Source of the DNA: a virus
DNA length: 64,000 nucleotides
Reading direction: 5' to 3' (one strand)
IMG/VR virus record: IMGVR_UViG_3300045988_119033
Below, in pieces: positions 4,934 to 46,520 of this stretch. Under the pieces are notes generated by a model. It was given only the letters and a program-made list of their open reading frames with translations. It was not told the DNA's origin and searched no databases. A program made the position numbers and the translations under genes. The number at the start of each line of letters is the position of its first letter. Within the stretch, counting starts at the first letter, position 1.

Positions 4934-5827
4934 ATGAGAAGAAGGTTTGAGGCATATAAACAACAACCAAAATTGGTGAAATTAATGGGTAATCTAGGGG
5001 TAGATCAGAATTATACGATAGAAAAAGGATATCGTTATTTTGATTTACTTGTAGTTGGAGGTGGCGGCGGAGGTGGCACAAACAGTGGTGGCGGTGGAGC
5101 TTCTGGAACAATAGCATTTGCTCGTAATATAAAAATCTCTTTGCTACCGAAAACTTTGACTTGTAAAATTGCAAAGCCTGTAAATGCACAAACTGATGGG
5201 GATAGTACAACTCTTGAAATAAACGGGGATACGATAATCTGTGCTGGAGGGCAAAGAGGTAATAGTGAGGGAGCAGGAGGGCTTGGTAATGGCTCTAAAA
5301 TACCAGACAGTATATATACCATTCTATCAAAGTTGGTAGAAAACCCATCTTCCGATATCGCGATTTGTAATAATGGTGGAGGCTCTCCTGGTTATTGGAA
5401 TGGTTCTTACGGTTATGCTGGTGGTTCAGGCGCATCTATGTCGGGTAATGGAAATTCATCGTCAGGAATGACCGGTGGAAACAGTGTAAGTAATGCAGAT
5501 GGTATGGGCGGTTATAAAGGTGGAAATAGTCAATCTTATCAAGGTGGTACAGGATATAAATATAACAATGTACTTATTCCTATTGGCCTATTTGGAGGAG
5601 GTGGAACTTCGGGGAAAGGCTCGAACGGATCTGGTTCGGATGGATCTGGAGCAGGTGGTGGGGCGGCAGGTCTTGAATCAGGTGGAAATGGTGGAAATTC
5701 AGGGTCAAGCAATCCTACGAATGGCGGAAATGGTGGCATTGGAGCTGGTGGCGGAGGAGGTGGTGGTCTGTCACGTAAAGGAGGAAAAGGAGGACAGGGT
5801 ATAATTTGTTTATATTATCATAATTGA
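4934..5827 (+). CDS. Glycine-rich collagen-like fibre protein with N-terminal MRRRFE motif
   Basis: Poly-Gly/GGxGG runs throughout. The start codon sits 1 nt after the upstream stop. The N-terminus MRRRFE is shared with the ORF at 42978 and is near-identical to the ORF at 25412. Antisense Pro-rich ORFs here are mirror artefacts. Confidence 0.5.
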   Translation: MRRRFEAYKQQPKLVKLMGNLGVDQNYTIEKGYRYFDLLVVGGGGGGGTNSGGGGASGTIAFARNIKISLLPKTLTCKIAKPVNAQTDGDSTTLEINGDTIICAGGQRGNSEGAGGLGNGSKIPDSIYTILSKLVENPSSDIAICNNGGGSPGYWNGSYGYAGGSGASMSGNGNSSSGMTGGNSVSNADGMGGYKGGNSQSYQGGTGYKYNNVLIPIGLFGGGGTSGKGSNGSGSDGSGAGGGAAGLESGGNGGNSGSSNPTNGGNGGIGAGGGGGGGLSRKGGKGGQGIICLYYHN

Positions 5828-8194: not shown

Positions 8195-8608
8195 ATGAAA
8201 CAAGTATTATATAAAAATGATATATACCCCTATAATGTAAGGGTATTGCTTGGAGCAGATGAAGAGTATATAGTTAAGACGTTCGCCAACCTGGAAGTAG
8301 AAGATCAGAGCTGGGAGGGGTGGACTGATGATTATGGTGGCAGAACTATTTTCGTAGGAAACCGAACCAATCACAGGAAAGAAATATGTTTCTTATTTCA
8401 TTCGCTGTCTGATATGGATGTTAGAACCATAGGACACGAATGCCTGCACGGTCTTTCTATTTATTGTAAGTATCTTAATATGGATTACGGTTTTGAAGTC
8501 GGAGGAGATGAGCATGCCGCCTGTCTGATGGGATGGTTAGTTGATAAGGTTTGTGGTGCTTACCACAAATTTAAGAAGGAGGAAGAAAAAAATGGCAAAG
8601 AAGACTAA
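8195..8608 (+). CDS. Small HExxH zinc-metallopeptidase-like protein (137 aa)
   Basis: The only recognisable feature is GHECLHG (HExxH). Its own promoter and terminator context lies between rsr and the tail lysin gene. Confidence 0.4.
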   Translation: MKQVLYKNDIYPYNVRVLLGADEEYIVKTFANLEVEDQSWEGWTDDYGGRTIFVGNRTNHRKEICFLFHSLSDMDVRTIGHECLHGLSIYCKYLNMDYGFEVGGDEHAACLMGWLVDKVCGAYHKFKKEEEKNGKED

Positions 8609-10994
8609 AAATTATGTAAGAGACAAACAACCAAAAACATTATGGAGTAAAATTGGTCCGTTTGTAAAACTTAGAGAATATCTGGCATCTAATATAACAC
8701 CTGACGTGTATGCTAATGAAAGAGGATTAAAAACCAAAATAATGGAATTTTTTGGTCAAGATGTTCCGAAAGCCAATGTAGATGATTTTAGTCAGAATCT
8801 TTGGTTTAGATTCTTAAACCAACCAAATAATCTGAAAGAAGAAAATGGGATTGTCAGAATACCAGACAATATCAAATCCATTATATCTGACAGGATAAAT
8901 GGTGGGTGGGAGAAAATGGCTAAAAAATATGGAAGGGAGCTTGATTCCTTAGATAATAAGATAATTGATGGAAAAGTTGCAGGCAAGGACGTATCTGATT
9001 TGGAGGAGTTAAGGGATGTAACAAGTAGGAAACTTGGAATGGTAGAAGAGGGTATAGATCTCTTAAAAAAAGCCAGAACCGGGGAACATCAGGTATTTAA
9101 CGAATATAATTTTATACCGGATGCTTACGGAGATTTAAATGATTTATCAGGCTTATCAAGTTTTACCATGTACCGTGATGATAGAGGTAGGATGGTTGTG
9201 AAAGATAAGTACGATTTTTATAGAAGCGATCAACCTTTTGGTGTTGGGGTTGTTACTAAGACTCTTGATACAATAGGATATCCTTTTGAAATAAGGGATT
9301 ATGTAGAAGATAAAATCCCATACGAAGAGAATGATCCAAACAAGATCCTGTTTAGATCCATTATTGATTCAAAGAATGATTTGGATAAAAGGATGGAGAT
9401 AAGATCCAAAAAACAAGGAGGGGATTCTTCTAAGCCGGAAATAGATTGGGATTTATTCAAATCCAAATATGAAAATATGAAGCGTGTGGGTAAGGGTAAG
9501 CATCGTACTATGGACGTAGAAGGGATGAATATGATCTATGATGCTTTATATGATAAAGGTTTTAATCAACGCCAGATAGAAGCCGTACTTGGAAATATTA
9601 TTGAAGAATCTGGTGGAAACCCCTACGCTGTATCTGAGGATGGAAAATTTAGGGGACTTTTTCAAGAATATTACAAAAGATATCCGCCAAAAGAGTTTGA
9701 AAGAGATAAAGAGAGATTTAAGAGCGATAAGCGTGGATATATCAACTATATGATAGACAGATTTTATGATCATGTTCAAGATGCTGGGAAGTATAGTATA
9801 AAAGATACTAAATACAAAAAAGCTATTCATGCAGTAAACGAATTTATGTCAGAAGATCCAGATACGGATTATTCGTATCCACTTGTATATGCTTTTGAAG
9901 CTCCATCAGATAAAGAAGGAACTTATAAAAACAGAAAGAGCGTATCAAATTTGATAAGTCAATCTTATGTTTTGGATAATGTTGATAAAAATGATAATAC
10001 TATTGTTGATGCTATTCTTGGAATAAAAAATGATCTTGAGCTACAAGACTCTATTTCCACTACAAGAGGTGAAGCCTTTAAAGAAGCCAGGAAAAGAGGT
10101 CTTAAGGAATTTACATGGAATGGAAAGAGATACAATACCAACATCAAGAAGGAAGGTGGCGTAGTTGGCAAGCAGCGTGAAGCATATGAATACTTTACTA
10201 ATAAGCGCGGCATGTCCAAGATACAGGCGCTCGCCATCATAGGTAACCTCATGGCTGAATCTGGCCTTAAAGATGACATATACGGAGACAACAGAACATC
10301 ATACGGCATACAGCAATGGCACAACGAACGCATGGATAAGCTATTCAAGCACGCCAAAAAGAAAGGACATTCTACACCCACATTCAAAGACCAACTTGAG
10401 TTCTTGGCTGACGAATACGAAGGGAAAACCGGATATTCTAATTTCTTATACACAAGAAAAGGAAAAGAAGGACCAGGGTATTACAACTACAGCCGGCAGG
10501 ATTTTATGAACGCCGATAACCTTAAGGATGCTGTAGTAGCTTGGAACCAAGGAGCAGGACGTCCTCATAAGAGTGTTATAAGAAATGATGATCGTTATGA
10601 CTATGCTATGGAAGTTGCTAAAAATCTTGGTTTGGAAATTGAAGAAAATTCCGTATCTTTGTATGGTCAAATGGGATTCGGAGATGATGGAGAAATAGCA
10701 GCATCGGTAACACTTCCAGAGGTAGAAGTGGCAGCCGCCCTCCCTAACCCGGAAGCCCAGTCCCAGGAGAGACAGTCCGAGGAAGAGAGATTCCGTACAT
10801 GGACTGAAACGTATGGTAAAGACATCGTAAATCATTTACTGACGTTAGACGGGAAAAAGGATGGTGATGACAGTGATTACAGCATGATGTATAGACAGCA
10901 TCAAAAAGAAAGCGAAGAGGATAAGAAAATGGCTTTGATTAATGCCGTGCTTCCCAATATACAACTTCGCATTAAAGGCGTCACTGATAATTAG
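8592..10994 (+). CDS. Tail-associated peptidoglycan hydrolase with two phage-tail-lysozyme-like domains
   Basis: Two copies of the GNxxxESG motif: LGNIIEESGGNPY, and IGNLMAESG followed by YGIQQW. The start is revised to the ATG at 8592, which is preceded by the SD-like AAGGAGG at 8576-8582. The track start at 8541 overlaps the previous gene. Confidence 0.6.
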   Translation: MAKKTKNYVRDKQPKTLWSKIGPFVKLREYLASNITPDVYANERGLKTKIMEFFGQDVPKANVDDFSQNLWFRFLNQPNNLKEENGIVRIPDNIKSIISDRINGGWEKMAKKYGRELDSLDNKIIDGKVAGKDVSDLEELRDVTSRKLGMVEEGIDLLKKARTGEHQVFNEYNFIPDAYGDLNDLSGLSSFTMYRDDRGRMVVKDKYDFYRSDQPFGVGVVTKTLDTIGYPFEIRDYVEDKIPYEENDPNKILFRSIIDSKNDLDKRMEIRSKKQGGDSSKPEIDWDLFKSKYENMKRVGKGKHRTMDVEGMNMIYDALYDKGFNQRQIEAVLGNIIEESGGNPYAVSEDGKFRGLFQEYYKRYPPKEFERDKERFKSDKRGYINYMIDRFYDHVQDAGKYSIKDTKYKKAIHAVNEFMSEDPDTDYSYPLVYAFEAPSDKEGTYKNRKSVSNLISQSYVLDNVDKNDNTIVDAILGIKNDLELQDSISTTRGEAFKEARKRGLKEFTWNGKRYNTNIKKEGGVVGKQREAYEYFTNKRGMSKIQALAIIGNLMAESGLKDDIYGDNRTSYGIQQWHNERMDKLFKHAKKKGHSTPTFKDQLEFLADEYEGKTGYSNFLYTRKGKEGPGYYNYSRQDFMNADNLKDAVVAWNQGAGRPHKSVIRNDDRYDYAMEVAKNLGLEIEENSVSLYGQMGFGDDGEIAASVTLPEVEVAAALPNPEAQSQERQSEEERFRTWTETYGKDIVNHLLTLDGKKDGDDSDYSMMYRQHQKESEEDKKMALINAVLPNIQLRIKGVTDN

Positions 10995-33524: not shown

Positions 33525-34295
33525 TTGAAACAAATTATGGAATTAAAAGATTTTAAAGATGTAGTTAGAGCAATGACAAAAGAAGAGTTCGAATCAGCAA
33601 TCAACGAAGATATTAAATTCGTTGAAAGATTTAAGCATTTTTTTAAACATGATGATGTTGCGAGGATAATAGAACACGTAAAGTCAGTGTTAGAAGCATC
33701 AGTGGACTACTGCTATCCGAATCATCCTGAACCTAAAGCAGAACCTGGAGACATGGGAGAGGTTTCTGATGGATACCATACTTTCAATGAATTGTATCGG
33801 TACCGCATGTTGTATAACGCCGCCTTTTTTAATCTATTAGCCAGAAATGGACAGGTTGAAGTTTGCAAATCAAGAAAGCACAGCGATGGAGAAAAATGTT
33901 TCGGTTCTGATGACTGGTTTATTGTGATGGCGATCCTGCCTACCGGTCAGGTATCTAATCACTATAAAAGCAAATACTGGGATTTGTTTGATGTTCCTGA
34001 AAGAGAAACCGCTTTCGAATACGATGGCCATACACCAAATGAAGCTGCTGATAGGATAGAAAAGTACCTTAAGTTGCCTTGTTACGGTATGACGTTTGAA
34101 AAGGCTTTGGAATCACTCAAATTGGGTCACAAGATAAAGAGAACTGATTGGGGTGGAAAGTATATCCAGATGTTTGTTTCGTATTCTAACATAATTTTAT
34201 TAATGGTAGATACAGATCAAAAGTCGACAACAGAATGGATCCCTTCTTATAACGATATAGTGTCTAACGACTGGATAGTATTACAATTACAATGA
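33525..34295 (+). CDS. Two-domain protein: unknown N-terminal domain plus a C-terminal DUF2829-like domain
   Basis: The C-terminus MTFEKALESLKLGHKIKRTDWGGKYI ... WIPSYNDIVSNDWIVLQ fits the remembered DUF2829 pattern (MxFxEALxxLKxGKKVxRxGWxGK ... W.P...DLL..DW). Confidence 0.5.
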   Translation: MKQIMELKDFKDVVRAMTKEEFESAINEDIKFVERFKHFFKHDDVARIIEHVKSVLEASVDYCYPNHPEPKAEPGDMGEVSDGYHTFNELYRYRMLYNAAFFNLLARNGQVEVCKSRKHSDGEKCFGSDDWFIVMAILPTGQVSNHYKSKYWDLFDVPERETAFEYDGHTPNEAADRIEKYLKLPCYGMTFEKALESLKLGHKIKRTDWGGKYIQMFVSYSNIILLMVDTDQKSTTEWIPSYNDIVSNDWIVLQLQ

Positions 34296-36249: not shown

Positions 36250-39200
36250 ATGGTATCAACGTGTATTATTAAAAGAGATAATAAAAAGAAAGTTGTTTCT
36301 GTCTCTACCAGATCAGGGGACAGGTCTATGTTATTCGATAAGATAGCATCTATTCCTCTTATGGAAAATAGGGAACGGGCTACTACTGTTTTTAAAACCG
36401 TATTTTCTAATAAGTTCTTAAAGGCTTTTGGTGACTGGAGAAGGAATGTGCCTATCAACAAACAGGCTTACAATAAGGTAAAATCTAACATCGGCCTTAT
36501 TCCAGAGACCTATAGAGAAAGGGTGCTGGATAAGGCTTCTAAGATGAGTAACCCTATTCTTGTGTCGAAATCAGATGCACCTTATGGGATTCAAGAATCA
36601 GGCTTTGGATTCTATAGCCAAGATCTGGGTGATAATATTATGTTGGTGGATGCTATGGTTCCGTCAAGTATCTCCGTGCCGGAAGAACCAGGAATAGACT
36701 CAGGGCAGTATCTACAAGATGCTATATCTTCGGACTTCACTCCCGTATCTATGGTACAGGATAATGATGTTAATTATATGGTTATAAAAGACGGTCTTAA
36801 GATATTTAGTCCAGAAGAGCTACCAGAAACAGATTCTAATCCTGTGGGTGTAACGTATCAGACTGGAGAACCTCGTTTGTTTTTTATGAATGATCGTAAT
36901 CAATTATTTGAAGATTACGGAGAAGCTCTTCGCTCTGGCGGGAATGATATCAGAATAGGATTCTTATCTGGCACCGTTCAAGAATCTGCCTGGGATGGCG
37001 TGGCAGACATTACTTACAAGGCTGGAAAGTATGTCCTTAACAACCCCAAATCTTTTATACCTGTTATGACCGCCTCTGCTTCCACTTCTTTATCAACAAA
37101 AGGTGGGATAATAAACTACCTTATAAAGAAAGGTCTTTTGTCAGGATCCAAGATATTCGATCCGGAAACAAGAAGCTATTATCTTACAGGAGAAGGACAT
37201 GCAGGACAAATTAGACTTTTCAATTCAGCCTTAGCTTATACCGAACTTCGTAATCATTTCAGTTCTGATGTTTCCATGAATGATCAAGGCATGATAACCA
37301 TAAATTCATTGGATAATAGTAAGGTGACTATGAGACTCGCCACCGGAGGAACAGAAAGAGTTAGCAAGGAGCAGATAAAGAGCGATCTTAAGTCTGGAAG
37401 ATACAATGAATTGGATGCTAAATACGATCACTTTGATGCGCTTGTAGTTTCATTTATATTAGAAGACAATGATCTTTATGCTGATACTAAAGCTAAGATA
37501 GTATCGGATTATAGCCAAGAGGAACGTAATCAACGAAATTCTATTGTTGAGATACTGAAAACGCTGGGCGTTAGTGTCGTTGGCATGACCGATTATATAG
37601 AGAAGTACCAAACTAAATACGGACACGAACCTTCTGCTAAAGCATTGGCGGATATTGCCAATAACGTAATAGCAGTCGGTGAAGATGCTACTTTGTCTGA
37701 CTTAGTAGAAGAAACAGCCCACTTCCTTGTAGAGGCGTACAGAGATCAGAATGCTGTTGAATCTGTTTTGCAAGACGTAGAAGGCACTGAAGAATGGAAT
37801 CAGTATGCAAATCAGTATTATAATACATACGGTAAGGTATATGAAGGAACTGAACTTGACAATGTAGTTAGGAAAGAAATTCTTGGAAAGATCCTTGCCA
37901 GGGAGATGCAGGACAGAACGGCGCCCATAGAGCCCACCTCCTTCCTGGGACGCGTCCGGCAGCTTCTCTCTGGAATCGTAAACTGGCTTAAATCAGCTTT
38001 ATCTACCCAAAGACAAGATTTGAATAACGTTATTAAAAACATTCGTGATCTTGCTATTACCGACATAGATAAAGGATTTGATACTTCTCTTTTAAAGGAT
38101 AATGATTTTACATTATACTCTCTTTCCTCTATGAACAAGAACAAGTTTCTTGAGTCTAAGATCAGGGCATTGAGAAAAACATTGAGAGACTTACGTCAGA
38201 TAAGCTCTGATAGGGCTGTAACTACATCTATGACCCTTGCTCAACTTAAGACCATAGAAGATAAGATAAATAAGGTAGAGACCGAAATAGACAAAAATGA
38301 GATGGCGGCTGCCATGAATAGCATGATCTCCACAGCCGAAGCTCAGGTCAGATACTTAAGCAATGTAGTAAATACTATCCTTCATGGTGATACCAAAGAC
38401 GGTAAACTTCATTTCAATACCAATGATCGAAAGAACGTAGATATTATCAACAATCAGGTTCTTCCGATCATGAACGATCTTCGAGGATATATCCGTAACA
38501 GAAGTACCGAATTTGACGAACGTGAAAAGCAAGATTATACAAATAGGATCAATACCGTCATTGCCGACATCAATGGTATTCAGTCTGATATTAAATCAGT
38601 ACAAGATCTTGATGAAAGTACGTTGCTTGACAAGTTAATGAACGAACTTCATGTGCCGGCAGATAAGGTAAAGAAAGTAAAAGAGTTCTTTGATAAAGTC
38701 CAACACGATGTGTCCTGGATAAGTAGGTGGTTTGGTATATTAGAACATTCTTCCAGCCCGTTTAATAACGCTCTTGGAGCTATGATTGCCAAAGACAATT
38801 ATAATGCGATGGTGAATGCCCAGCCAGCCATATCCGACTTCCTGGCATATGCGAAAAAACATGGTTTCAATAAATCTGAATTTGAAAAACTGCTTCAGAA
38901 AGTAGACGGCAAGACTTCTAATTATCTTCGTAGTGCTCTTGATATGGCTAAATACGATCGTAATAAGAAGCTGGCGCAGATGCGAGCGTTTGCAACTGCC
39001 ATGAACATAGAGATATCAGAAGAAGAAATCAATGATGTGGTTGACAATAACCGTAATTATGTGTTTAAAAGAGAAGTAGTTGACAAGGACGGAAATACGG
39101 TTACTGAGAACGCTAAATTCAAACCTTCTTCTGATAGGGTTAATACCGACATCTTTACCATCGAGCAGGAAAGGATTTATACAGAACAGATGGAGAAGTG

Positions 39201-42200
39201 GGATGCTGAAAATTCAGAACTGGAATTTAGTGAAAGTTATGCCACAAGAATGGAATCCATATACAAAAAGGCTGAAGAAGAATTGGGGTATCCGGTTTCT
39301 CAAACAACTAAAGAATATCTTAATGCTCTTTCCCGGCAAAAACGGATATTGAGGCAACCTTTTATTGATAGCAATGGTAATTTTGATGAAGTTGCTTACT
39401 TCAAGAGCAGTAATTATGAAGAAGAAGGACTGCTTCGTAAACAACGTAAGGAAGCAGCTTCAGAATACATATATGTAGGAACCAGAAGAGTCGATAAAAC
39501 CGGTGATCAACTCAAGATGGCTAAAGAAATACAAGCTATAAATGAAGTATGGAGAAAAGAATCAAATAATGTTACTAATGCCGTATCAGAATCATTTTTG
39601 GAAAGATTGAGAACGATTCAGCGTGAGTCTGGAGGGGAGGCTGCACTGAGAACGCTTATGTTAGGAGGACACCTGGCTTTTAATGATCAGTTTTGGAATG
39701 ATATAGAGTCAGATCAGTCGGCACGCACCGAATCAAACAACAAGGCTTCGTATCTTAAAATGGCGCATGATATCATTAATTCTACGACAAGTGATAGAGA
39801 TGCGACAGACGTAGAAGCTATTGTGAAAGATATAGAAAAAAACAGGGCTATCATCAAGGAAATAATTGGGAATAACCGCGATGTGGCTGATATCGGAGAA
39901 ATCAATGAAGCGACATTTACCTCATCTGAAAGAGATGCTTTTAGGGCTGCATCTGAAGCTATTGAAACCGACTACGCTATTTTAATAGATTATGCTAAGA
40001 TGGTGGGTCTTGAAGATATTGATAAATACCTTACTAAAAGCAGTAAGGCTGAAAACGAAGTCAATCAATCTTATTTAAATGCTCTTGCTGACTCCAAGGA
40101 AGTGGAATGGAAGTTTGTGCAACGTCATACTACGGCAAAGAAAGCAAAAAGGATTCAAGCCTTAAGGGATAAACTATTTAAGGCTGCTGATAACCGATAT
40201 TTGTTTACTGTATCTGAAACCAACTACTTGTCAGAAAAGCTTGGAATAAGCAAAGAATTAGACGGTAGAGATTTTAGGAATGCTGTCAATACTAAGATGG
40301 CCAGCTTGTTTTTAAATAACACAAGAGAATCAGGTATAGAAGAGGCTAATGCTATTGTTAATGAATTTGCCAGAAGTCAAGTCTTTTCATATTACAAACG
40401 CATGGCTCCTACCGGATATGCGGCTATGCTTGGTAAAATAGGTCGAGGTGAGATAGACGTGGCACAGATGGTTAAAGACGTACAGAACGGGACATCCACA
40501 CAAGATTATGGTATGAATATATCGTACCTGTCTTTCGACCCTGCAAGAGCGTGGGTGGCTGAATCTGAAGCTGAAAATAGCGGTCGTAACCCAGATTATG
40601 TAAAAGATCATGGGTATGGTTATCGTATGCCCAAGAAGAGCCTGTATCGTGATGAATCGTATTTCAATGACTTCGGCATTAGATATGATGCTGATGGTAA
40701 TGAGATTGCTACTAAAAACGTAGAGCAATGGAATATGATTCAAAAACTTAAGGAAATAAAAAGACAATCCCTTTCCTTATACAAAGAGCAGAGCCCCAAT
40801 TTGTATGCTATTCCACAGATATCCAAACAAGATATAGAACGTATGGAGGGATTGGGTATCAACTTCAAAAATACGGTTCGTAATTTTGTATCAGATCTCT
40901 GTCTGGACAGAGTAGACGATTCTCTATACGGTAAAACCAGACAAGGGGAAGTATATGATCCAGAAGATAGGATTAGGTCTATACCTAAATACTACATATA
41001 TGAATTAGAGAACCAAGATGACGTATCTCATGATTTTGGTTATTCTTATTCGATGCTTATGATGCAATCATCGTTATACAACGAAAAGCAGAAGTCTATA
41101 GAGCTTGCCCAAGGACTGGAGCAGATGTTACTGAATAAGCAATTTGAAGGCGGTAAGAAAGCTGAGGCAACTCAAGCATACCAGATGTTTAGAGACTTCT
41201 TTAATGACCATTATTATGGCATTAGGATGAACACCAAGAAACTTACGGTTAACATCGGTGGATACACGATAGATCTTACAAGAATTATGATGGCCGTTGA
41301 AAGGTTTATGTCGGTCATGAACTTAGCGCTGTCCCCGTTTGTGGCAGCTACCGGCGCTCTGACAGGTCATATTAACCTCATCATGGAATCTGCCGTAGGA
41401 CAATATATAAGCAAAGATTCCCTTAAATATGCATCGGCTGAGTTTTCACGTCTTGCGCCATCTTGTATAGCAGAAACCGGAGACATAGATAGAAAAAGCA
41501 AATTATATGCCATAGGTGAGAGAATGGGGATATTCAATATCCGAAATCGTATGTATGGTGCCGGATATAATAGGGTGGCCCGGACCTTAATGCGTTCACC
41601 GATGTATGCTTTTATGGAAATCATGAACTACCCTCTTGATCCGCAGGTTATGATCGCTACTATGGATAACGTTCGTTATTACAAAGGTCGGTTCTACACG
41701 TTCCAGGATTTCAAGATGGAAAAAGAACGTGGTAAAGAACAGAGCACCATAAAAAGAGAATGGGATGCATTAAAAGATCGTACTTTATGGAGTATGGCAG
41801 ATGTCGTAGACGGCAAGGTGGTTGTGAAACCAGGATCGGGTGTTACTGTTGAGGAGGTTGAAACTCAGATGGCTATAACCCGAAATCAGGTTCGTAGCCT
41901 GTCTCAGATATGTAACGGATCTTTGAATGAAGAAAACCGGACCGCCGCATCCCGCAACTGGATAGCCAGGTTCATGACTGCCCACCGAGGATGGCTGGTG
42001 CTGGCGGCTCAACGTCTGTGGAAAAGAAGGGGATTCAATTTCCAGACAATGCAAGAAGAGGAAGGGCTGTCAATTACGTTAAAGAATATGATAGCTAAAA
42101 CATTTAGCTTAGCTTCCGAGCCTGGTATGAAAAATATCATAGATGCCTGGAACGAAAATAAAGATAAGATGGGTGAGGTGGAAAAGACTAATCTTAAACG

Positions 42201-42666
42201 CCTCAGTGTTTATGCCGGCACGTTCCTCATCATGCAGGCCGTGTCTATGCTTCTTGCCGGATGGCGTGATGATGATGAAAACGAGGAAAGCTGGCTTACT
42301 CAATTCGGATCTTATGTAGGATTTAGAACCATAAATGAAATAGCTTCACAGATGCCGTTTATTATGGAGCTTAATGTGGTGGATATCATTAATGACCCAT
42401 TTGTCATGGGACGGAAACTGAAGGATCTCACCGATCTCAGGAACTACTCACTTGATAAAGTAACATCTGGTACATATAAAGGTGAGTCTAAGTTATTTAG
42501 ACAACTCGCTAAACAGACGTTTATCAAACAATGGTATAACATTAAGACGCCGGAAGACGTAGCACGTGCCTATAACTGGTGGCAGCAGACGAACAACAAG
42601 TCAATGATGTTTTTCATCGGTGCCACTCCTGATTCAGAAGGAGACGATGATGTGAGCTACAAGTAG
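36250..42666 (+). CDS. Giant virion protein (2138 aa), function unknown
   Basis: 6.4 kb uninterrupted ORF. Largely alpha-helical and charged with no canonical catalytic motif. A clear terminator follows. Confidence 0.55.
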   Translation: MVSTCIIKRDNKKKVVSVSTRSGDRSMLFDKIASIPLMENRERATTVFKTVFSNKFLKAFGDWRRNVPINKQAYNKVKSNIGLIPETYRERVLDKASKMSNPILVSKSDAPYGIQESGFGFYSQDLGDNIMLVDAMVPSSISVPEEPGIDSGQYLQDAISSDFTPVSMVQDNDVNYMVIKDGLKIFSPEELPETDSNPVGVTYQTGEPRLFFMNDRNQLFEDYGEALRSGGNDIRIGFLSGTVQESAWDGVADITYKAGKYVLNNPKSFIPVMTASASTSLSTKGGIINYLIKKGLLSGSKIFDPETRSYYLTGEGHAGQIRLFNSALAYTELRNHFSSDVSMNDQGMITINSLDNSKVTMRLATGGTERVSKEQIKSDLKSGRYNELDAKYDHFDALVVSFILEDNDLYADTKAKIVSDYSQEERNQRNSIVEILKTLGVSVVGMTDYIEKYQTKYGHEPSAKALADIANNVIAVGEDATLSDLVEETAHFLVEAYRDQNAVESVLQDVEGTEEWNQYANQYYNTYGKVYEGTELDNVVRKEILGKILAREMQDRTAPIEPTSFLGRVRQLLSGIVNWLKSALSTQRQDLNNVIKNIRDLAITDIDKGFDTSLLKDNDFTLYSLSSMNKNKFLESKIRALRKTLRDLRQISSDRAVTTSMTLAQLKTIEDKINKVETEIDKNEMAAAMNSMISTAEAQVRYLSNVVNTILHGDTKDGKLHFNTNDRKNVDIINNQVLPIMNDLRGYIRNRSTEFDEREKQDYTNRINTVIADINGIQSDIKSVQDLDESTLLDKLMNELHVPADKVKKVKEFFDKVQHDVSWISRWFGILEHSSSPFNNALGAMIAKDNYNAMVNAQPAISDFLAYAKKHGFNKSEFEKLLQKVDGKTSNYLRSALDMAKYDRNKKLAQMRAFATAMNIEISEEEINDVVDNNRNYVFKREVVDKDGNTVTENAKFKPSSDRVNTDIFTIEQERIYTEQMEKWDAENSELEFSESYATRMESIYKKAEEELGYPVSQTTKEYLNALSRQKRILRQPFIDSNGNFDEVAYFKSSNYEEEGLLRKQRKEAASEYIYVGTRRVDKTGDQLKMAKEIQAINEVWRKESNNVTNAVSESFLERLRTIQRESGGEAALRTLMLGGHLAFNDQFWNDIESDQSARTESNNKASYLKMAHDIINSTTSDRDATDVEAIVKDIEKNRAIIKEIIGNNRDVADIGEINEATFTSSERDAFRAASEAIETDYAILIDYAKMVGLEDIDKYLTKSSKAENEVNQSYLNALADSKEVEWKFVQRHTTAKKAKRIQALRDKLFKAADNRYLFTVSETNYLSEKLGISKELDGRDFRNAVNTKMASLFLNNTRESGIEEANAIVNEFARSQVFSYYKRMAPTGYAAMLGKIGRGEIDVAQMVKDVQNGTSTQDYGMNISYLSFDPARAWVAESEAENSGRNPDYVKDHGYGYRMPKKSLYRDESYFNDFGIRYDADGNEIATKNVEQWNMIQKLKEIKRQSLSLYKEQSPNLYAIPQISKQDIERMEGLGINFKNTVRNFVSDLCLDRVDDSLYGKTRQGEVYDPEDRIRSIPKYYIYELENQDDVSHDFGYSYSMLMMQSSLYNEKQKSIELAQGLEQMLLNKQFEGGKKAEATQAYQMFRDFFNDHYYGIRMNTKKLTVNIGGYTIDLTRIMMAVERFMSVMNLALSPFVAATGALTGHINLIMESAVGQYISKDSLKYASAEFSRLAPSCIAETGDIDRKSKLYAIGERMGIFNIRNRMYGAGYNRVARTLMRSPMYAFMEIMNYPLDPQVMIATMDNVRYYKGRFYTFQDFKMEKERGKEQSTIKREWDALKDRTLWSMADVVDGKVVVKPGSGVTVEEVETQMAITRNQVRSLSQICNGSLNEENRTAASRNWIARFMTAHRGWLVLAAQRLWKRRGFNFQTMQEEEGLSITLKNMIAKTFSLASEPGMKNIIDAWNENKDKMGEVEKTNLKRLSVYAGTFLIMQAVSMLLAGWRDDDENEESWLTQFGSYVGFRTINEIASQMPFIMELNVVDIINDPFVMGRKLKDLTDLRNYSLDKVTSGTYKGESKLFRQLAKQTFIKQWYNIKTPEDVARAYNWWQQTNNKSMMFFIGATPDSEGDDDVSYK

Positions 42667-42804
42667 ACGAAGAATATTGGGCTTATATTACTACAATATG
42701 GCTCTAATATGCTATCTTAGCATTGTCAAAGAGTAGACTATACGTTTTTTTGTTCTTACTTTAAAGGTTATGTAGGTTTAATTTTTTCTGAAATTGTTTT
42801 CTTA

Positions 42805-42847
42805 CCAGTTCTCAGTCAGCGATGATAGAGAACTGGTTTCTTTTGTT
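42805..42847 (+). terminator. Rho-independent terminator after the 2138-aa gene
   Basis: 9-bp stem CCAGTTCTC/GAGAACTGG, followed by TTTCTTTTGTT. Confidence 0.65.
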
Positions 42848-42977
42848 ATGAAAAAAAATGCTATCTTGCAAAAAATAAGGTGATTATATACAACTTTACA
42901 CCATATTTTATAGATACTATACATATAATAAAGACAATAAGTGATTTTGTTGCACCTGATACTTACTTAAAAGGAAT

Positions 42978-43712
42978 ATGAGAAGAAGATTTGAAACATC
43001 ATTAAAAATATATGAATATCAAATAGTTAGCAACTGTATAGGGGGGGGGGTAATCATTGATGATGAAATAGTCGGTACCGTTCCACAAAGTGGTGTATTT
43101 ACCTTTCTTTCTATAAAACAACGTCTGGGTTCTATAAGTATCCAAGGAGGAGTCCCATCTAATACAAAAGAGACTATCAGCGAACAAACAGAATCTACGA
43201 AAGAGCTTGTAGAGAAGGATGACATTAAACTTATTATAGGTAGAGTAGAATCTCCTTCTTTAGGTTTTTTGATACGTCTTTATTTGCCTGACCAGTTTAC
43301 AGTGAGAGAACAAGAAAAGAAATATGTAACATATCGTGAAATACTATATACTGCTCCTGGTAAAAAATACAATGTAAACAATGATAATCCTATTGTAATG
43401 AATTACACCAGTGAGCAACATGAGTACCCAGATACGATAATAGGAGATCCTGTAGATAAGGTCTACGAAACTGGCTCAGATACATCATGGAGTTGCGAAC
43501 TTGTTGAAACTAATATCGAACCAGAGCCTTCTCCTACATCTTTTCAATATTTGACCCTAACATCAATAGTCAGACCTATTATAACCAGGTTGGGTCAAGG
43601 CACTTTATATGCCACCTATTCCGCTCATATAAAACTTGAATTATATTCTAAAACACATGGAAGTATAGGTGAATATGTGGTAACATCGGAGACAGTTACG
43701 TTCGACAATTAA
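42978..43712 (+). CDS. Hypothetical protein (244 aa) with an MRRRFE N-terminus and an in-frame G10 homopolymer
   Basis: The N-terminus is identical to ORF 4934. G10 at 43041-43050 encodes GGG within codons 22-24. Last plus-strand gene before the convergent junction. Confidence 0.5.
   Translation: MRRRFETSLKIYEYQIVSNCIGGGVIIDDEIVGTVPQSGVFTFLSIKQRLGSISIQGGVPSNTKETISEQTESTKELVEKDDIKLIIGRVESPSLGFLIRLYLPDQFTVREQEKKYVTYREILYTAPGKKYNVNNDNPIVMNYTSEQHEYPDTIIGDPVDKVYETGSDTSWSCELVETNIEPEPSPTSFQYLTLTSIVRPIITRLGQGTLYATYSAHIKLELYSKTHGSIGEYVVTSETVTFDN
43041..43050 (+). repeat. Homopolymeric G10 tract inside the coding sequence
   Basis: Ten consecutive G in a roughly 35% GC genome. Confidence 0.8.
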
Positions 43713-43717
43713 AACAA

Positions 43718-43756
43718 TTCTGCATATAGACTCTATACTATCGTCTATATGCAGAA
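43718..43756. terminator. Bidirectional terminator at the junction of the convergent plus and minus modules
   Basis: Perfect 14-bp inverted repeat TTCTGCATATAGAC/GTCTATATGCAGAA with an 11-nt loop. TTGTTTT follows on the minus strand. Confidence 0.65.
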
Positions 43757-43770
43757 TTGCATATAACTTC

Positions 43771-43989
43771 CTAAAGTAATAGCGGATCTATATATGCATT
43801 ACCTCGTAATACGGATAAAGAATCATTTTTGTCTTTAATTATTAATGCTACACCTCTACCTTTAAATATAAATTCTTTTTGTGTATCATTATTTAGAAAT
43901 TGCTTAAATTCTTCTATTTCTTTATCAGAAGGTCTAAACTCTTTTGCAAATACATAAACTTTTTGTTCGAATGTTAACTTTTCGTTCAT
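43771..43989 (-). CDS. Small hypothetical protein (72 aa from the revised start MNEKLTFEQK...)
   Basis: The revised start at 43987-43989 sits directly downstream (minus sense) of a conserved 25-nt element also found before ORF 44494-44649. Confidence 0.4.
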   Translation of the reverse strand: MNEKLTFEQKVYVFAKEFRPSDKEIEEFKQFLNNDTQKEFIFKGRGVALIIKDKNDSLSVLRGNAYIDPLLL

Positions 43990-44020
43990 AACTCTAATTT
44001 TTAAAAGTGAATAATTAATT
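43990..44020 (-). promoter_or_regulatory. Conserved upstream element (plus-strand sequence TAAT TTTTAAAAGTGAATAATTAATT), copy 1
   Basis: Identical over about 24 nt to 44650-44680. It ends 6 to 7 nt before the ATG of a small minus-strand gene. Confidence 0.45.
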
Positions 44021-44311
44021 AAGGTTGCCAAAAGAAAGGAAAATAAGTTCTTTAATACAAGCTTTTGGTATGGTCATTATACCAGAAGCTTGTTCTAATG
44101 TATTGGAATTACCAACAGCATAATGACCAGCTACAGATATAGATCTTTCATTTTCATGTACAACAATACCATAGCTCTCTATTTCTGATATATCTGTTTC
44201 GTAATCCTCCAGATCTACCCATGTTCTTTCTGATAGGTTGGAATCTATCCACTTAACTAATACCCGCTTGTTTAAAAGCGATTCTTTTCTTTTATTTCTA
44301 CTCTTTTTCAT
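44015..44311 (-). CDS. Hypothetical protein (98 aa)
   Basis: ORF. Its stop lies inside conserved element copy 1. Confidence 0.4.
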   Translation of the reverse strand: MKKSRNKRKESLLNKRVLVKWIDSNLSERTWVDLEDYETDISEIESYGIVVHENERSISVAGHYAVGNSNTLEQASGIMTIPKACIKELIFLSFGNLN

Positions 44312-45175: not shown

Positions 45176-46520
45176 TTACGATCTTTAACAAATCCCCTGC
45201 TTTTAAGCAGGGGATCAATGATTCTTTTATTCATATATGTATTTTTAAATAATTGATTCTGATATATGCCAAAAAGTTATTATTATATTTGTATCATAAA
45301 TGTGGTTAAAAATGATTTCATACAAATATAACATATATTATTCAAAGAAAACGAAGTATCTTGTCAAGATACTTCGCGAATGCTGTTTTGTATGGAATCA
45401 TGCTTTAGCTCTACAACGTAGGTATTACAAACTGTTTGGGAAATATATCTCAGTTGGCAAGATGCAAAAACATTTCTCTAAAAGAATTAAGAGAAATCTT
45501 CTTCATTCCCAAACAACACAAGAAATTATTCAAAGGTTAGATTCAGCATACAATCGCTTCTTCAAGAAGTTGGCTAAACGACCTCCTAAGTTTAAATCAC
45601 CGGAGAAATTCAATTCTTTTGTATTCAAACAAGGAGGGTTTACCCTGAATGGAAATTGTCTAACAATTAACAAAGGAAAGAAACATTTTAAGTTTTCATA
45701 CAGTAGACCTTATGAAGGTAATGTTAAACAAATTAGAATAGTTAGAGAAACCTGTTCCCGTTTTAGTTTGATTATAGTTACAGACCATAATCCTGTAAAC
45801 TCTTATAGAAAGACACATGATGGTGCATCTATCGGATTGGATTTTGGTCTGAAAACTTATCTAACTAAAAGTGATGGTAGCAAAATCGATTCTCCATTAT
45901 TCCTCAAACAATATCAAAACAAGATTAGAAAACTAAACAAACGGTTTTCTAATGCAAAGAAAGGATCCAATAATAAAAGAAGGAGACTGTTTGAACTACA
46001 ACAAGCGTATCGTAAAATAAACAATCTTCGATCAGACTTTCAATGGAAATTAGCTCATGATTTGTGTAAACAATATGATTATATTTTTATTGAAGATCTA
46101 AACATTGAAGGAATGAAACGTTTGTGGGGAAAGAAAGTTTCTGATCTCAGTCATTCTTCTTTTATTGACAAACTTACATATATTGCTTCAAAGTATGGAG
46201 TGATAGTACATAAGATTGACAAATGGTATCCTTCTTCCAAAACTTGTGAATGTGGCTGCATTAATAAAGGACTGTCGTTACGCGACCGCACGTGGGTATG
46301 CCCGTCGTGCGGCGCGGTCAACGACCGTGATGTTCTTGCATCCCGTAATATACTTCGGAAGGGCATTTCCGAATTGGAGAGTAAGAGTAATTCCAACGAT
46401 AGTAATGTCGGGGTTTCTTGCGTTTGTATCCAAGAATCCCATTTGCTTTAGCGATGGGAGTATGTCAAGATCTTAATAGAATCTCCGATATTGTATTCCC
46501 CTTGGTATCCAACGAATTTT
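45176..46520 (+). mobile_element. Putative IS200/IS605-family element carrying tnpB only (IS1341-like); boundaries approximate
   Basis: TTAC at 45176-45179 followed 12 nt later by the subterminal hairpin ATCCCCTGC-TTTTAA-GCAGGGGAT (45192-45215). The 3' 100 nt of tnpB is GC-rich and hairpin-forming. No tnpA in the window. Confidence 0.45.
45300..46451 (+). CDS. tnpB: TnpB (IS200/IS605 OrfB-family RNA-guided endonuclease)
   Basis: The N-terminus YKYNIYYSKKTKYLVKILRECCFVWNHALALQRRYYKLFGKYIS matches the TnpB consensus. The C-terminus has a RuvC-like IFIEDLNIEG and a CxxC...CxxC zinc finger, CECGCINKG...WVCPSCGAVNDRDVLASRNI. Confidence 0.85.
   Translation: MWLKMISYKYNIYYSKKTKYLVKILRECCFVWNHALALQRRYYKLFGKYISVGKMQKHFSKRIKRNLLHSQTTQEIIQRLDSAYNRFFKKLAKRPPKFKSPEKFNSFVFKQGGFTLNGNCLTINKGKKHFKFSYSRPYEGNVKQIRIVRETCSRFSLIIVTDHNPVNSYRKTHDGASIGLDFGLKTYLTKSDGSKIDSPLFLKQYQNKIRKLNKRFSNAKKGSNNKRRRLFELQQAYRKINNLRSDFQWKLAHDLCKQYDYIFIEDLNIEGMKRLWGKKVSDLSHSSFIDKLTYIASKYGVIVHKIDKWYPSSKTCECGCINKGLSLRDRTWVCPSCGAVNDRDVLASRNILRKGISELESKSNSNDSNVGVSCVCIQESHLL

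Follow-up and report, generated by a model that had tools for sequence, protein, structure and literature searches.

The 64,000-nucleotide stretch of DNA analysed here, hereafter the window (IMG/VR virus record IMGVR_UViG_3300045988_119033), comes from an epsilon crAss-like gut phage and contains, inside a small gene, a homopolymer of ten G residues (G10). A long block of very large virion genes on the plus strand ends with this gene, an open reading frame (ORF) of 244 amino acids (aa) that extends from an ATG at 42978 to 43712 (MRRRFETSLKIYEYQIVSNCIGGGV..., MRRRFETSLKIYEYQIVSNCIGGGVIIDDE...) and is called the G10 gene below. Read directly from the window sequence, the homopolymer lies at 43041-43050 on the same strand; it makes up codons 22 to 24 (GGG GGG GGG) and continues into codon 25 (GTA), of which it supplies the first base. 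The tract region encodes ...SNCIGGGVI, and the window represents the in-frame (ON) state. The G10 gene is located directly 3' of, and in the same orientation as, a gene of 2138 aa (36250-42666) that matches phrog_37651, 'virion structural protein', and is therefore encoded within the virion structural module, as a gene for a fibre or receptor-binding protein would be. When GenBank phages were searched by blastn, the sole match in this region was to crAssE-Sib (OR575929, 151 kb; described in PMC11054128), and it is limited to the end of the structural gene upstream together with some of the intergenic sequence.

The homopolymer and its reading frames

The first-pass annotation, made from the sequence alone, had placed a G10 run in codons 22 to 24 of this ORF, and so it reads; the GC content that it gave for the window (35%) has to be corrected to the computed 37.9%. 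The G10 run is the only run of six or more G or C in the whole window, where the expected number of runs of at least ten G is 0.005 if bases are independent and identically distributed and 0.017 under a first-order Markov model. GGG is the rarest of the glycine codons in the genes of the window (10%), and in the 11 other runs of three or more glycines, including the seven-glycine runs of the gene at 4934-5827, it accounts for 2 of 39 codons and is never found consecutively. Thus, the tract is real and far from chance; it is longer than composition predicts and lies inside a coding region, both of which are expected of a contingency locus.

A change in tract length shifts the reading frame into early truncation, as is also expected of a contingency locus. 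Removal of one G creates GGG GGG GGG TAA, with a product of 24 aa, whereas addition of one G (28 aa) and removal of two (26 aa) both lead into a TGA slightly further downstream (Table 1), and G10 gives the complete 244 aa. The earlier statement that a change of one G would truncate the protein near 25 aa is accurate in either direction. Formation of a G-quadruplex was considered and rejected, because four G runs are required and one is present.

Tract length among related phages

Three queries of IMG/VR yielded related DNA loci, 93 of which carry the site; the protein itself has 118 homologues in metagenome assemblies, and the exact protein of the window is present in at least 22 gut-metagenome contigs. 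Pure runs of four lengths were found in the 93 loci: G9 (38 loci), G10 (28), G8 (17) and G11 (2). The few interrupted alleles (G5AG4, G5TG4, G6AG3 and G7AG2) amount to about 10%, leaving a pure run in about 90% of loci. The gene is in frame in 39 loci, with products of 240-245 aa, and out of frame (OFF) in 54, with a stop after 24-45 codons; for example, the G8 product has 26 aa in the clade of the window type and 44 aa in a TAATCG-type clade. All alleles in which the run is broken to seven or fewer G by a substitution inside the tract are in frame. Related phages therefore do have a homopolymer at the same position, of G8 to G11, and orthologues without one, which the first-pass annotation had regarded as evidence against a switch, exist as a minority (the interrupted alleles and some distant relatives with GGT or GGS). 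In a clade of epsilon crAss-like gut phages, these codons keep an uninterrupted G run, whose length varies among identical or near-identical genomes.

A sample unbiased with respect to the state of the gene was obtained by searching ENA and Logan assemblies for exact copies of two proteins, of 98 aa and 159 aa, that are encoded by neighbouring genes. The 18 unique contigs chosen in this way (SPAdes, MEGAHIT and Logan) carry G9 (9 contigs), G8 (5) and G10 (4); 14 of them (78%) are out of frame, and the downstream 219 codons are open in all. Gene callers report the OFF-state contigs as fragments of 142 or 147 aa, and when the N-terminal 61 aa were used in a word-indexed search, just five ORFs were retrieved, all of them truncated, in the OFF state. 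In natural genomes, the tract puts the gene out of frame in about 55-80% of cases, and the remainder of the gene is intact and under purifying selection.

Tract length has no phylogenetic signal, since it differs in 62% of gene pairs that are less than 0.2% divergent and in 65% of pairs that are more than 10% divergent. The same ORF, unaltered in its other 725 bases, can have G8, G9 or G10: the haplotype of the window was found with G10, with G9 (L111/L120, L123, L124 and L126) and with G8 (L116), and a second haplotype was found three times with each of these lengths. Apart from the tract, a single substitution over 2.7-2.9 kb separates the window from L124 (G9), and likewise a single one from L116 (G8). 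Polymorphism among such close relatives is far beyond background mutation, with control runs that are stable (see below), as expected of a contingency locus. Of the 54 OFF alleles, 51 have no second lesion, the downstream frame being open for at least 205 codons, and the ratio of nonsynonymous to synonymous polymorphism (pN/pS) is below 1 in both the conserved and the variable part of the gene (Table 1). The intact OFF alleles, the low pN/pS and the absence of phylogenetic signal, all from comparison of consensus sequences, are the observations that bear on reversibility; they form the pattern of a gene that would be needed often enough to be kept and that may be, in most genomes, one slip from expression.

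It is quite improbable that these length differences are artefacts of sequencing, polymerase chain reaction or assembly and that the true tract is always G10. Homopolymer indels are the commonest class of error, A and T runs in the nearby intergenic region vary too, one contig ends exactly at the tract, and there is no G run of similar length to serve as a control; but Illumina error does not give consensus -1 and -2 states in most independent assemblies, and the consensus sequences come from many independent samples and three assembly pipelines, with the -2 state (G8) common in both samples (17 loci and 5 contigs). Homopolymer controls, drawn with 10-kb flanks, were stable: the adjacent giant gene (at least 2,100 codons, 6.4 kb) is open without a frameshift in 69 of 69 loci, even though these frames together contain over 330 runs of 6 or 7 identical bases (178 A6, 69 A7, 66 T6, 14 G6 and 5 G7). 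Length was constant for a G7 of this gene (6 of 6 loci), for a coding A7 (79 of 79) and for a noncoding T8 (37 of 37). In 1.76 Mb of related loci, 88 of the 103 G or C runs of seven or more bases fall at the tract site. Furthermore, the lengths track the reading frame of each clade, since in a sub-clade where the next codon is TGT rather than GTA, G9 is in frame and G8 is out.

The contig that ends at the tract (L073, from IMG/VR, 100,773 bases) has G11 at its very end (position 1). Heterogeneity of the site within the sample would be expected to break the assembly graph there, and low coverage or sequencing error could produce the same break.

Programmed slippage at the level of RNA or translation, by which every genotype would yield some full-length protein and the DNA length would set the level, is the most improbable of the explanations considered. 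It would explain the dominance of OFF genotypes with an intact downstream frame, and long homopolymers are known sites of transcriptional slippage (review, PMC5009743). However, the site is not fixed but exists in four lengths, both other frames stop within 0-3 codons and so provide no second product, and no stimulatory RNA structure was found, a search against Rfam having returned only hairpin matches far below threshold. The tract therefore lacks the fixed slippery sequence, joining two substantial ORFs, that characterizes programmed frameshifting. Slippage on G or C runs is less efficient than on A or T runs. RNA slippage could nevertheless coexist with a switch in the DNA and make OFF genotypes leaky.

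Two other candidates were set aside. The tract is unlikely to be the target of a diversity-generating retroelement (DGR), because the variation is a change of length that needs no reverse transcriptase or template repeat to explain it. Nor are stop codons likely to have been reassigned: the standard code (table 11) leaves the giant ORFs open, and the stop of the OFF state is TAA.

The G10 run is probably a contingency locus that reversibly switches the 244-aa gene, a reading to which a probability of roughly 0.7 is assigned. Slipped-strand mispairing by the polymerase during replication of phage DNA would add or remove G residues; G10 would permit synthesis of the 244-aa protein, whereas G9 would bring in the TAA at once and G8 or G11 would lead to the TGA at 43058-43060, so that alleles of the window type would stop within 24-28 codons. 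An OFF genome could return to ON within its lineage, and populations would consist of mixtures of ON and OFF genomes, selected as a form of bet-hedging. A slipped-strand phase-variation switch had been suggested from the window alone; the conserved site, the lengths from G8 to G11 and the finding that more than half of the loci are OFF with the gene otherwise intact strongly support that suggestion, and from them we infer both the slippage and its reversibility.

A tolerated mutational hot spot without selected switching, in a dispensable gene whose G run is an accident of coding for Gly-Gly-Gly, is unlikely, though it deserves more weight than the two alternatives above. An OFF majority (54 of 93 loci and 14 of 18 contigs) indicates that phages persist without the protein, and all searches for its function were empty, both of which would suit a dispensable gene. 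However, a tolerated tract should soon be erased by synonymous interruption, or else decay of the gene should follow, whereas the run remains pure in about nine-tenths of loci despite the rarity of its codon, the exchange of C-termini (40% identical or unrelated) and the variability of neighbouring synonymous sites. The near absence of second lesions from OFF alleles (51 of 54 without one), the pN/pS below 1 and the comparable tracts of paralogues also argue against an accident that is merely tolerated.

Several points weigh against a reversible switch nonetheless. Each length is that of one consensus per assembly, not of reads or single plaques; there is no other G9-G10 run nearby as a like-for-like control for error; and predominance of the OFF state is also expected of a dispensable gene with a mutational hot spot. 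The 244-aa protein has no significant match in PHROGs, Pfam (even at an E-value of 1) or PADLOC, no match below an E-value of 0.49 in a profile search of PDB, no match below 1e-3 when its model was compared with BFVD and PDB by Foldseek, and no homologue by tblastn among 50,697 GenBank phage records.

The encoded protein, its paralogues and its surroundings

The structure predicted by AlphaFold2 with 51 homologues is a confident all-beta model (mean predicted local distance difference test score 93, predicted template modelling score 0.63) with a small N-terminal domain and a larger C-terminal domain with long strands (Table 1); immunoglobulin-like beta sandwiches are seen in the model. In the model, the tract encodes a loop that holds the invariant G22-G23 of the N-terminal domain. 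The N-terminal 60 residues (MRRRFENNAKLYEYKIVSNCIGGGV...) are conserved, with 65-97% identity across types, whereas the versions of the C-terminus among relatives are 40% identical or unrelated; a conserved N-terminus with exchangeable C-terminal modules is an arrangement typical of fibres and receptor-binding proteins. An exhaustive phmmer search with the N-terminal domain showed that it starts further small proteins with other C-termini and is also repeated inside large proteins that contain BACON domains. These large relatives match Pfam PEGA at 15.6-18.4 bits, below the cutoff of 20.8, and one of them matches TcaA_3rd_4th at 31 bits (cutoff 27).

The product is most likely an accessory, dispensable protein of the virion surface or of host interaction, as judged from architecture and gene position, with an N-terminal domain that is most likely docking or structural and C-terminal beta-sandwich modules that are exchangeable. 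The gene had been called a putative fibre or adhesin of the virion surface in the first-pass annotation; its position, the swapped C-termini, the immunoglobulin-like sandwiches and the presence of its domain in BACON proteins hint at such an exchangeable surface or host-interaction module, but the searches listed above found no homology of sequence or fold to a known fibre, spike or receptor-binding domain. It could act as an accessory binding module that is helpful on some host surface variants and harmful on others, or, by analogy with agt in phage T2, it could be a trigger of host defence that is switched off for escape.

The first six residues, MRRRFE, are shared with the glycine-rich product of the gene at 4934-5827, as had been noted before; the use of this motif as a sign of a fibre did not hold up, because it is only six residues long and starts several unrelated small genes. 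Sequences of the form MRRR[FY][EQY] begin otherwise unrelated small genes that follow giant virion genes, at 4934-5827 and 42978-43712 in the window, at 8282-8899 and 8904-9353 in L001, and at 321-782, 779-1504 and 1501-2235 in L130; the set includes a glycine-rich protein (Pfam Gly_rich_2, 26.5 bits) and proteins of 153, 205 and 241 aa. The shared start could be a targeting signal, a preference of translation initiation or a trace of common ancestry.

Many relatives have, between the giant gene and the G10 gene, a 205-aa MRRRF paralogue (MRRRFQIGMGVNPS..., MRRRFQIGMGV...) that the window lacks; it is found, for example, at 9379-9999 of L019 and in most of the loci L018-L097. This paralogue has a 5' G run of its own (G4, G5, G6, G8 or G9) and a T run that is T7 in 9 loci, T8 in 53 and T9 in 8. 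Of 75 loci, 35 have the paralogue out of frame, whichever state the G10 gene is in, and the joint states of paralogue and G10 gene are ON/ON in 20 loci, ON/OFF in 20, OFF/ON in 11 and OFF/OFF in 24. Two loci, L049 (10001-10060) and L058 (about 9980-10010), have deletion alleles to which the paralogue contributes its 5' end (ATGAGACGAAGATTTCAAATAGGGATGGGGG) and the G10 gene the sequence that follows its tract (TAATCGTAGAAGG), with the G run as the point of fusion. The fusion, MRRRFQIGMG followed directly by VIVEGKK..., is read in frame in L049 but not in L058, and a recombination or deletion event seems to have used the two G tracts as its junction.

More distant members of the family were also compared. 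A third clade (P0124 type) also has G10, next to a paralogue that reads GTA GGT GGT GAT. In the distant phage L132, the P0138 homologue reads GAG GGT GGG GGT, and a neighbouring paralogue (MRRRFYNSVEEYTYTILSDFN-G11-VIDSS(GK...); tract at about 1394-1404, gene 735-1406 on the minus strand) has G11 at the same codon position and is OFF, the gene caller having chosen as its start an ATG just before the run. A search of IMG/VR for related loci with P0124 and P0138 found none, whereas a search for contigs that encode these two proteins was successful. Still more distant relatives have GGT or GGS at the point of the tract. Because some family members have GGT or GGS and others have G10 or G11, the two glycines appear to be structural and the long G run a recurring added feature. 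It is conceivable, although we rate it somewhat below an even chance, that epsilon crAss-like phages carry a 'phasome': several MRRRF-led genes that close the virion module would each be controlled by a separate homopolymer switch, namely the poly-G of the G10 gene and the G and T runs of the neighbouring paralogue, with the same poly-G position in use in distant lineages, and the switches together would generate combinatorial variants of the virion surface or of host interaction. The signal of such a system would already be present across populations in metagenomes of the human gut, OFF being more frequent there than ON.

Features of the locus are listed in Table 1. The hairpin 3' of the 2138-aa gene, with its U-rich tail, resembles an intrinsic terminator that would separate that gene from the G10 gene, and the inverted repeat between the G10 gene and a convergent gene (43771-44031, minus strand) looks like a bidirectional terminator. 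Since the G10 gene would then be the last of its unit, a frameshift in it should have no polar effect downstream. The direct repeat AAAATGCTATCTTGC is a possible promoter element, to judge from the sequence; in crAssE-Sib and in L019, the same GCTATCTTGC closely precedes the first MRRRF gene, and the count of the motif GCTATCTTRC in a pattern search was weakly above chance. A scan for consensus sigma-70 promoters and terminators performed no better on the region than on shuffled sequences, as expected for a system of the Bacteroidota type. Two intergenic runs, T7 (42745-42751) and A8 (42851-42858), are close to the two copies of GCTATCTTGC (42706-42720 and 42855-42869), in the interval from the terminator-like hairpin to the start codon, and vary in relatives (T6-T8 and A7-A9); this variation could affect expression or be neutral.

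Table 1. Coordinates of the G10 gene, its homopolymer and associated features in the window
Feature	Position	Strand	Details
G10 gene, 244-aa ORF, ON in the window	42978..43712	+	118 homologues; pN/pS 0.30 (codons 1-60), 0.54 (codons 61-244)
G10 homopolymer, putative hypermutable element	43041..43050	+	G10 in frame; G8, G9 and G11 out of frame
TAA stop of the G9 (-1) state, 24 aa	43051..43053	+	From sequence; G9 alleles in relatives end at 24 aa
TGA stop of the G11 (+1) and G8 (-2) states, 28 and 26 aa	43058..43060	+	From sequence and ORF lengths in relatives
Conserved small N-terminal beta domain (predicted)	43005..43145	+	Residues about 10-56; AlphaFold2 model and invariant columns
Exchangeable C-terminal all-beta domain (predicted)	43164..43709	+	Residues about 63-244; at least 3 versions after the same N-terminus
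Hairpin followed by U-rich stretch, 3' of the 2138-aa gene (terminator-like)	42804..42837	+	Free energy (dG) -19 kcal/mol; z-score -4.35; 0 of 200 shuffles as good
Perfect 17-bp inverted repeat between the G10 gene and the convergent gene (terminator-like)	43715..43759	.	dG -24.5 (+) and -28.2 (-); z-scores -9.7 and -7.9
Motif AAAATGCTATCTTGC (possible promoter element)	42855..42869	+	Direct repeat with 42706-42718; pattern search

A TnpB / IS605 OrfB-type gene is located downstream at 45300-46451 on the plus strand (Pfam OrfB_IS605 and Cas12f1-like_TNB; phrog_506, 'transposase'). Its insertion is polymorphic in near-identical loci, being present in L100, L101, L106 and L124 and replaced by genes of 77 aa and 63 aa in L102, L103, L107 and others, and a similar TnpB gene adjoins the homologous gene of the distant phage L132. 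Within the structural block, a 256-aa gene at 33525-34295 on the plus strand encodes a WDGH domain (E-value 2e-36) fused to a Tad2-like Thoeris anti-defence domain (E-value 1e-11), and is a candidate counter-defence gene by its sequence.

Relation to known systems and biological meaning

The mechanism is already known; its setting in Crassvirales is new, and the population-scale signal is unusually clear. Sorensen et al. (2021, Cell Rep 35:109214) reportedly described poly-G tracts of Campylobacter phages (Fletchervirus) that produce sub-populations with or without a host-interaction protein, on hosts whose surface is phase-variable. The resemblance lies in a long G homopolymer inside a phage gene, its variation in length, and phase variation on the side of the phage; the differences are that the present phages belong to the epsilon group of Crassvirales, with a presumed Bacteroidota host and an unrelated protein family, and that their tract is known from comparative metagenomic sequence alone. 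Campylobacter itself uses poly-G switches, whereas Bacteroides mainly uses invertible promoters; if the host is, as presumed, of this kind, the phage is not copying the usual mechanism of its host.

Phages T2 and T4, among others, have contingency loci at coding A runs, with reversible high-rate frameshifts that yield heterogeneous progeny and have been interpreted as bet-hedging; these runs are about 6-9 bases long, mutants have a frequency of about 1e-3 in lysates in which the wild type dominates, and in T2 the defence-triggering protein encoded by agt is switched off for escape (Gomez, Barrick and Waters, bioRxiv 10.1101/2025.10.21.683753). The loci are alike in having a mononucleotide repeat in a coding sequence and a reversible frameshift, the reversal being our inference for the epsilon crAss-like phages. 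They differ in that the present tract is G10 in an AT-rich genome otherwise devoid of G or C runs, that OFF is the consensus in most natural samples, and that the tract is kept across a gene family with swapped C-terminal modules.

The poly-G and poly-C surface genes of Campylobacter jejuni, Neisseria meningitidis and Haemophilus influenzae are similar in the 5' position of the tract, the prompt stop in both wrong frames, lengths of 8-11, ON and OFF alleles without other lesions, and neighbouring loci that are combinatorial. In contrast to these bacterial genes, the G10 gene resides in a phage genome of lytic type that would be copied by a phage polymerase, and the unit of its population is the virion burst and not the colony. 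DGRs, present in the epsilon group in phages such as crAssE-Sib (PMC11054128), are another route to diversify a host-binding protein in the same group of phages; however, a DGR uses reverse transcriptase to rewrite the codons of a C-type-lectin variable repeat, whereas the tract would only toggle the presence of a protein. The same description of epsilon crAss-like phages (PMC11054128) makes no mention of frameshifts or homopolymers, and a full-text search of the literature for crAss or Crassvirales together with poly-G, homopolymer, frameshift, slipped-strand or contingency found no such switch.

The G10 gene is split or truncated by gene callers in most assemblies (142 aa, 24 aa and the like), and the locus is a marker that can be scored in existing read data for ON/OFF dynamics within individuals. 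If the switch is real, this small gene family becomes a candidate for determining how these phages interact with their hosts. Few viruses of the human gut are as abundant as crAss-like phages, and phase variation in the host is the usual explanation of how they coexist with Bacteroidales over the long term. A conserved and unstable poly-G switch would show that crAss-like phages also hedge their bets genetically, by means other than DGRs. A phasome, if one exists, would be the phages' answer to phase variation in the capsules and surface proteins of Bacteroidales, and the first contingency-locus system described in Crassvirales.

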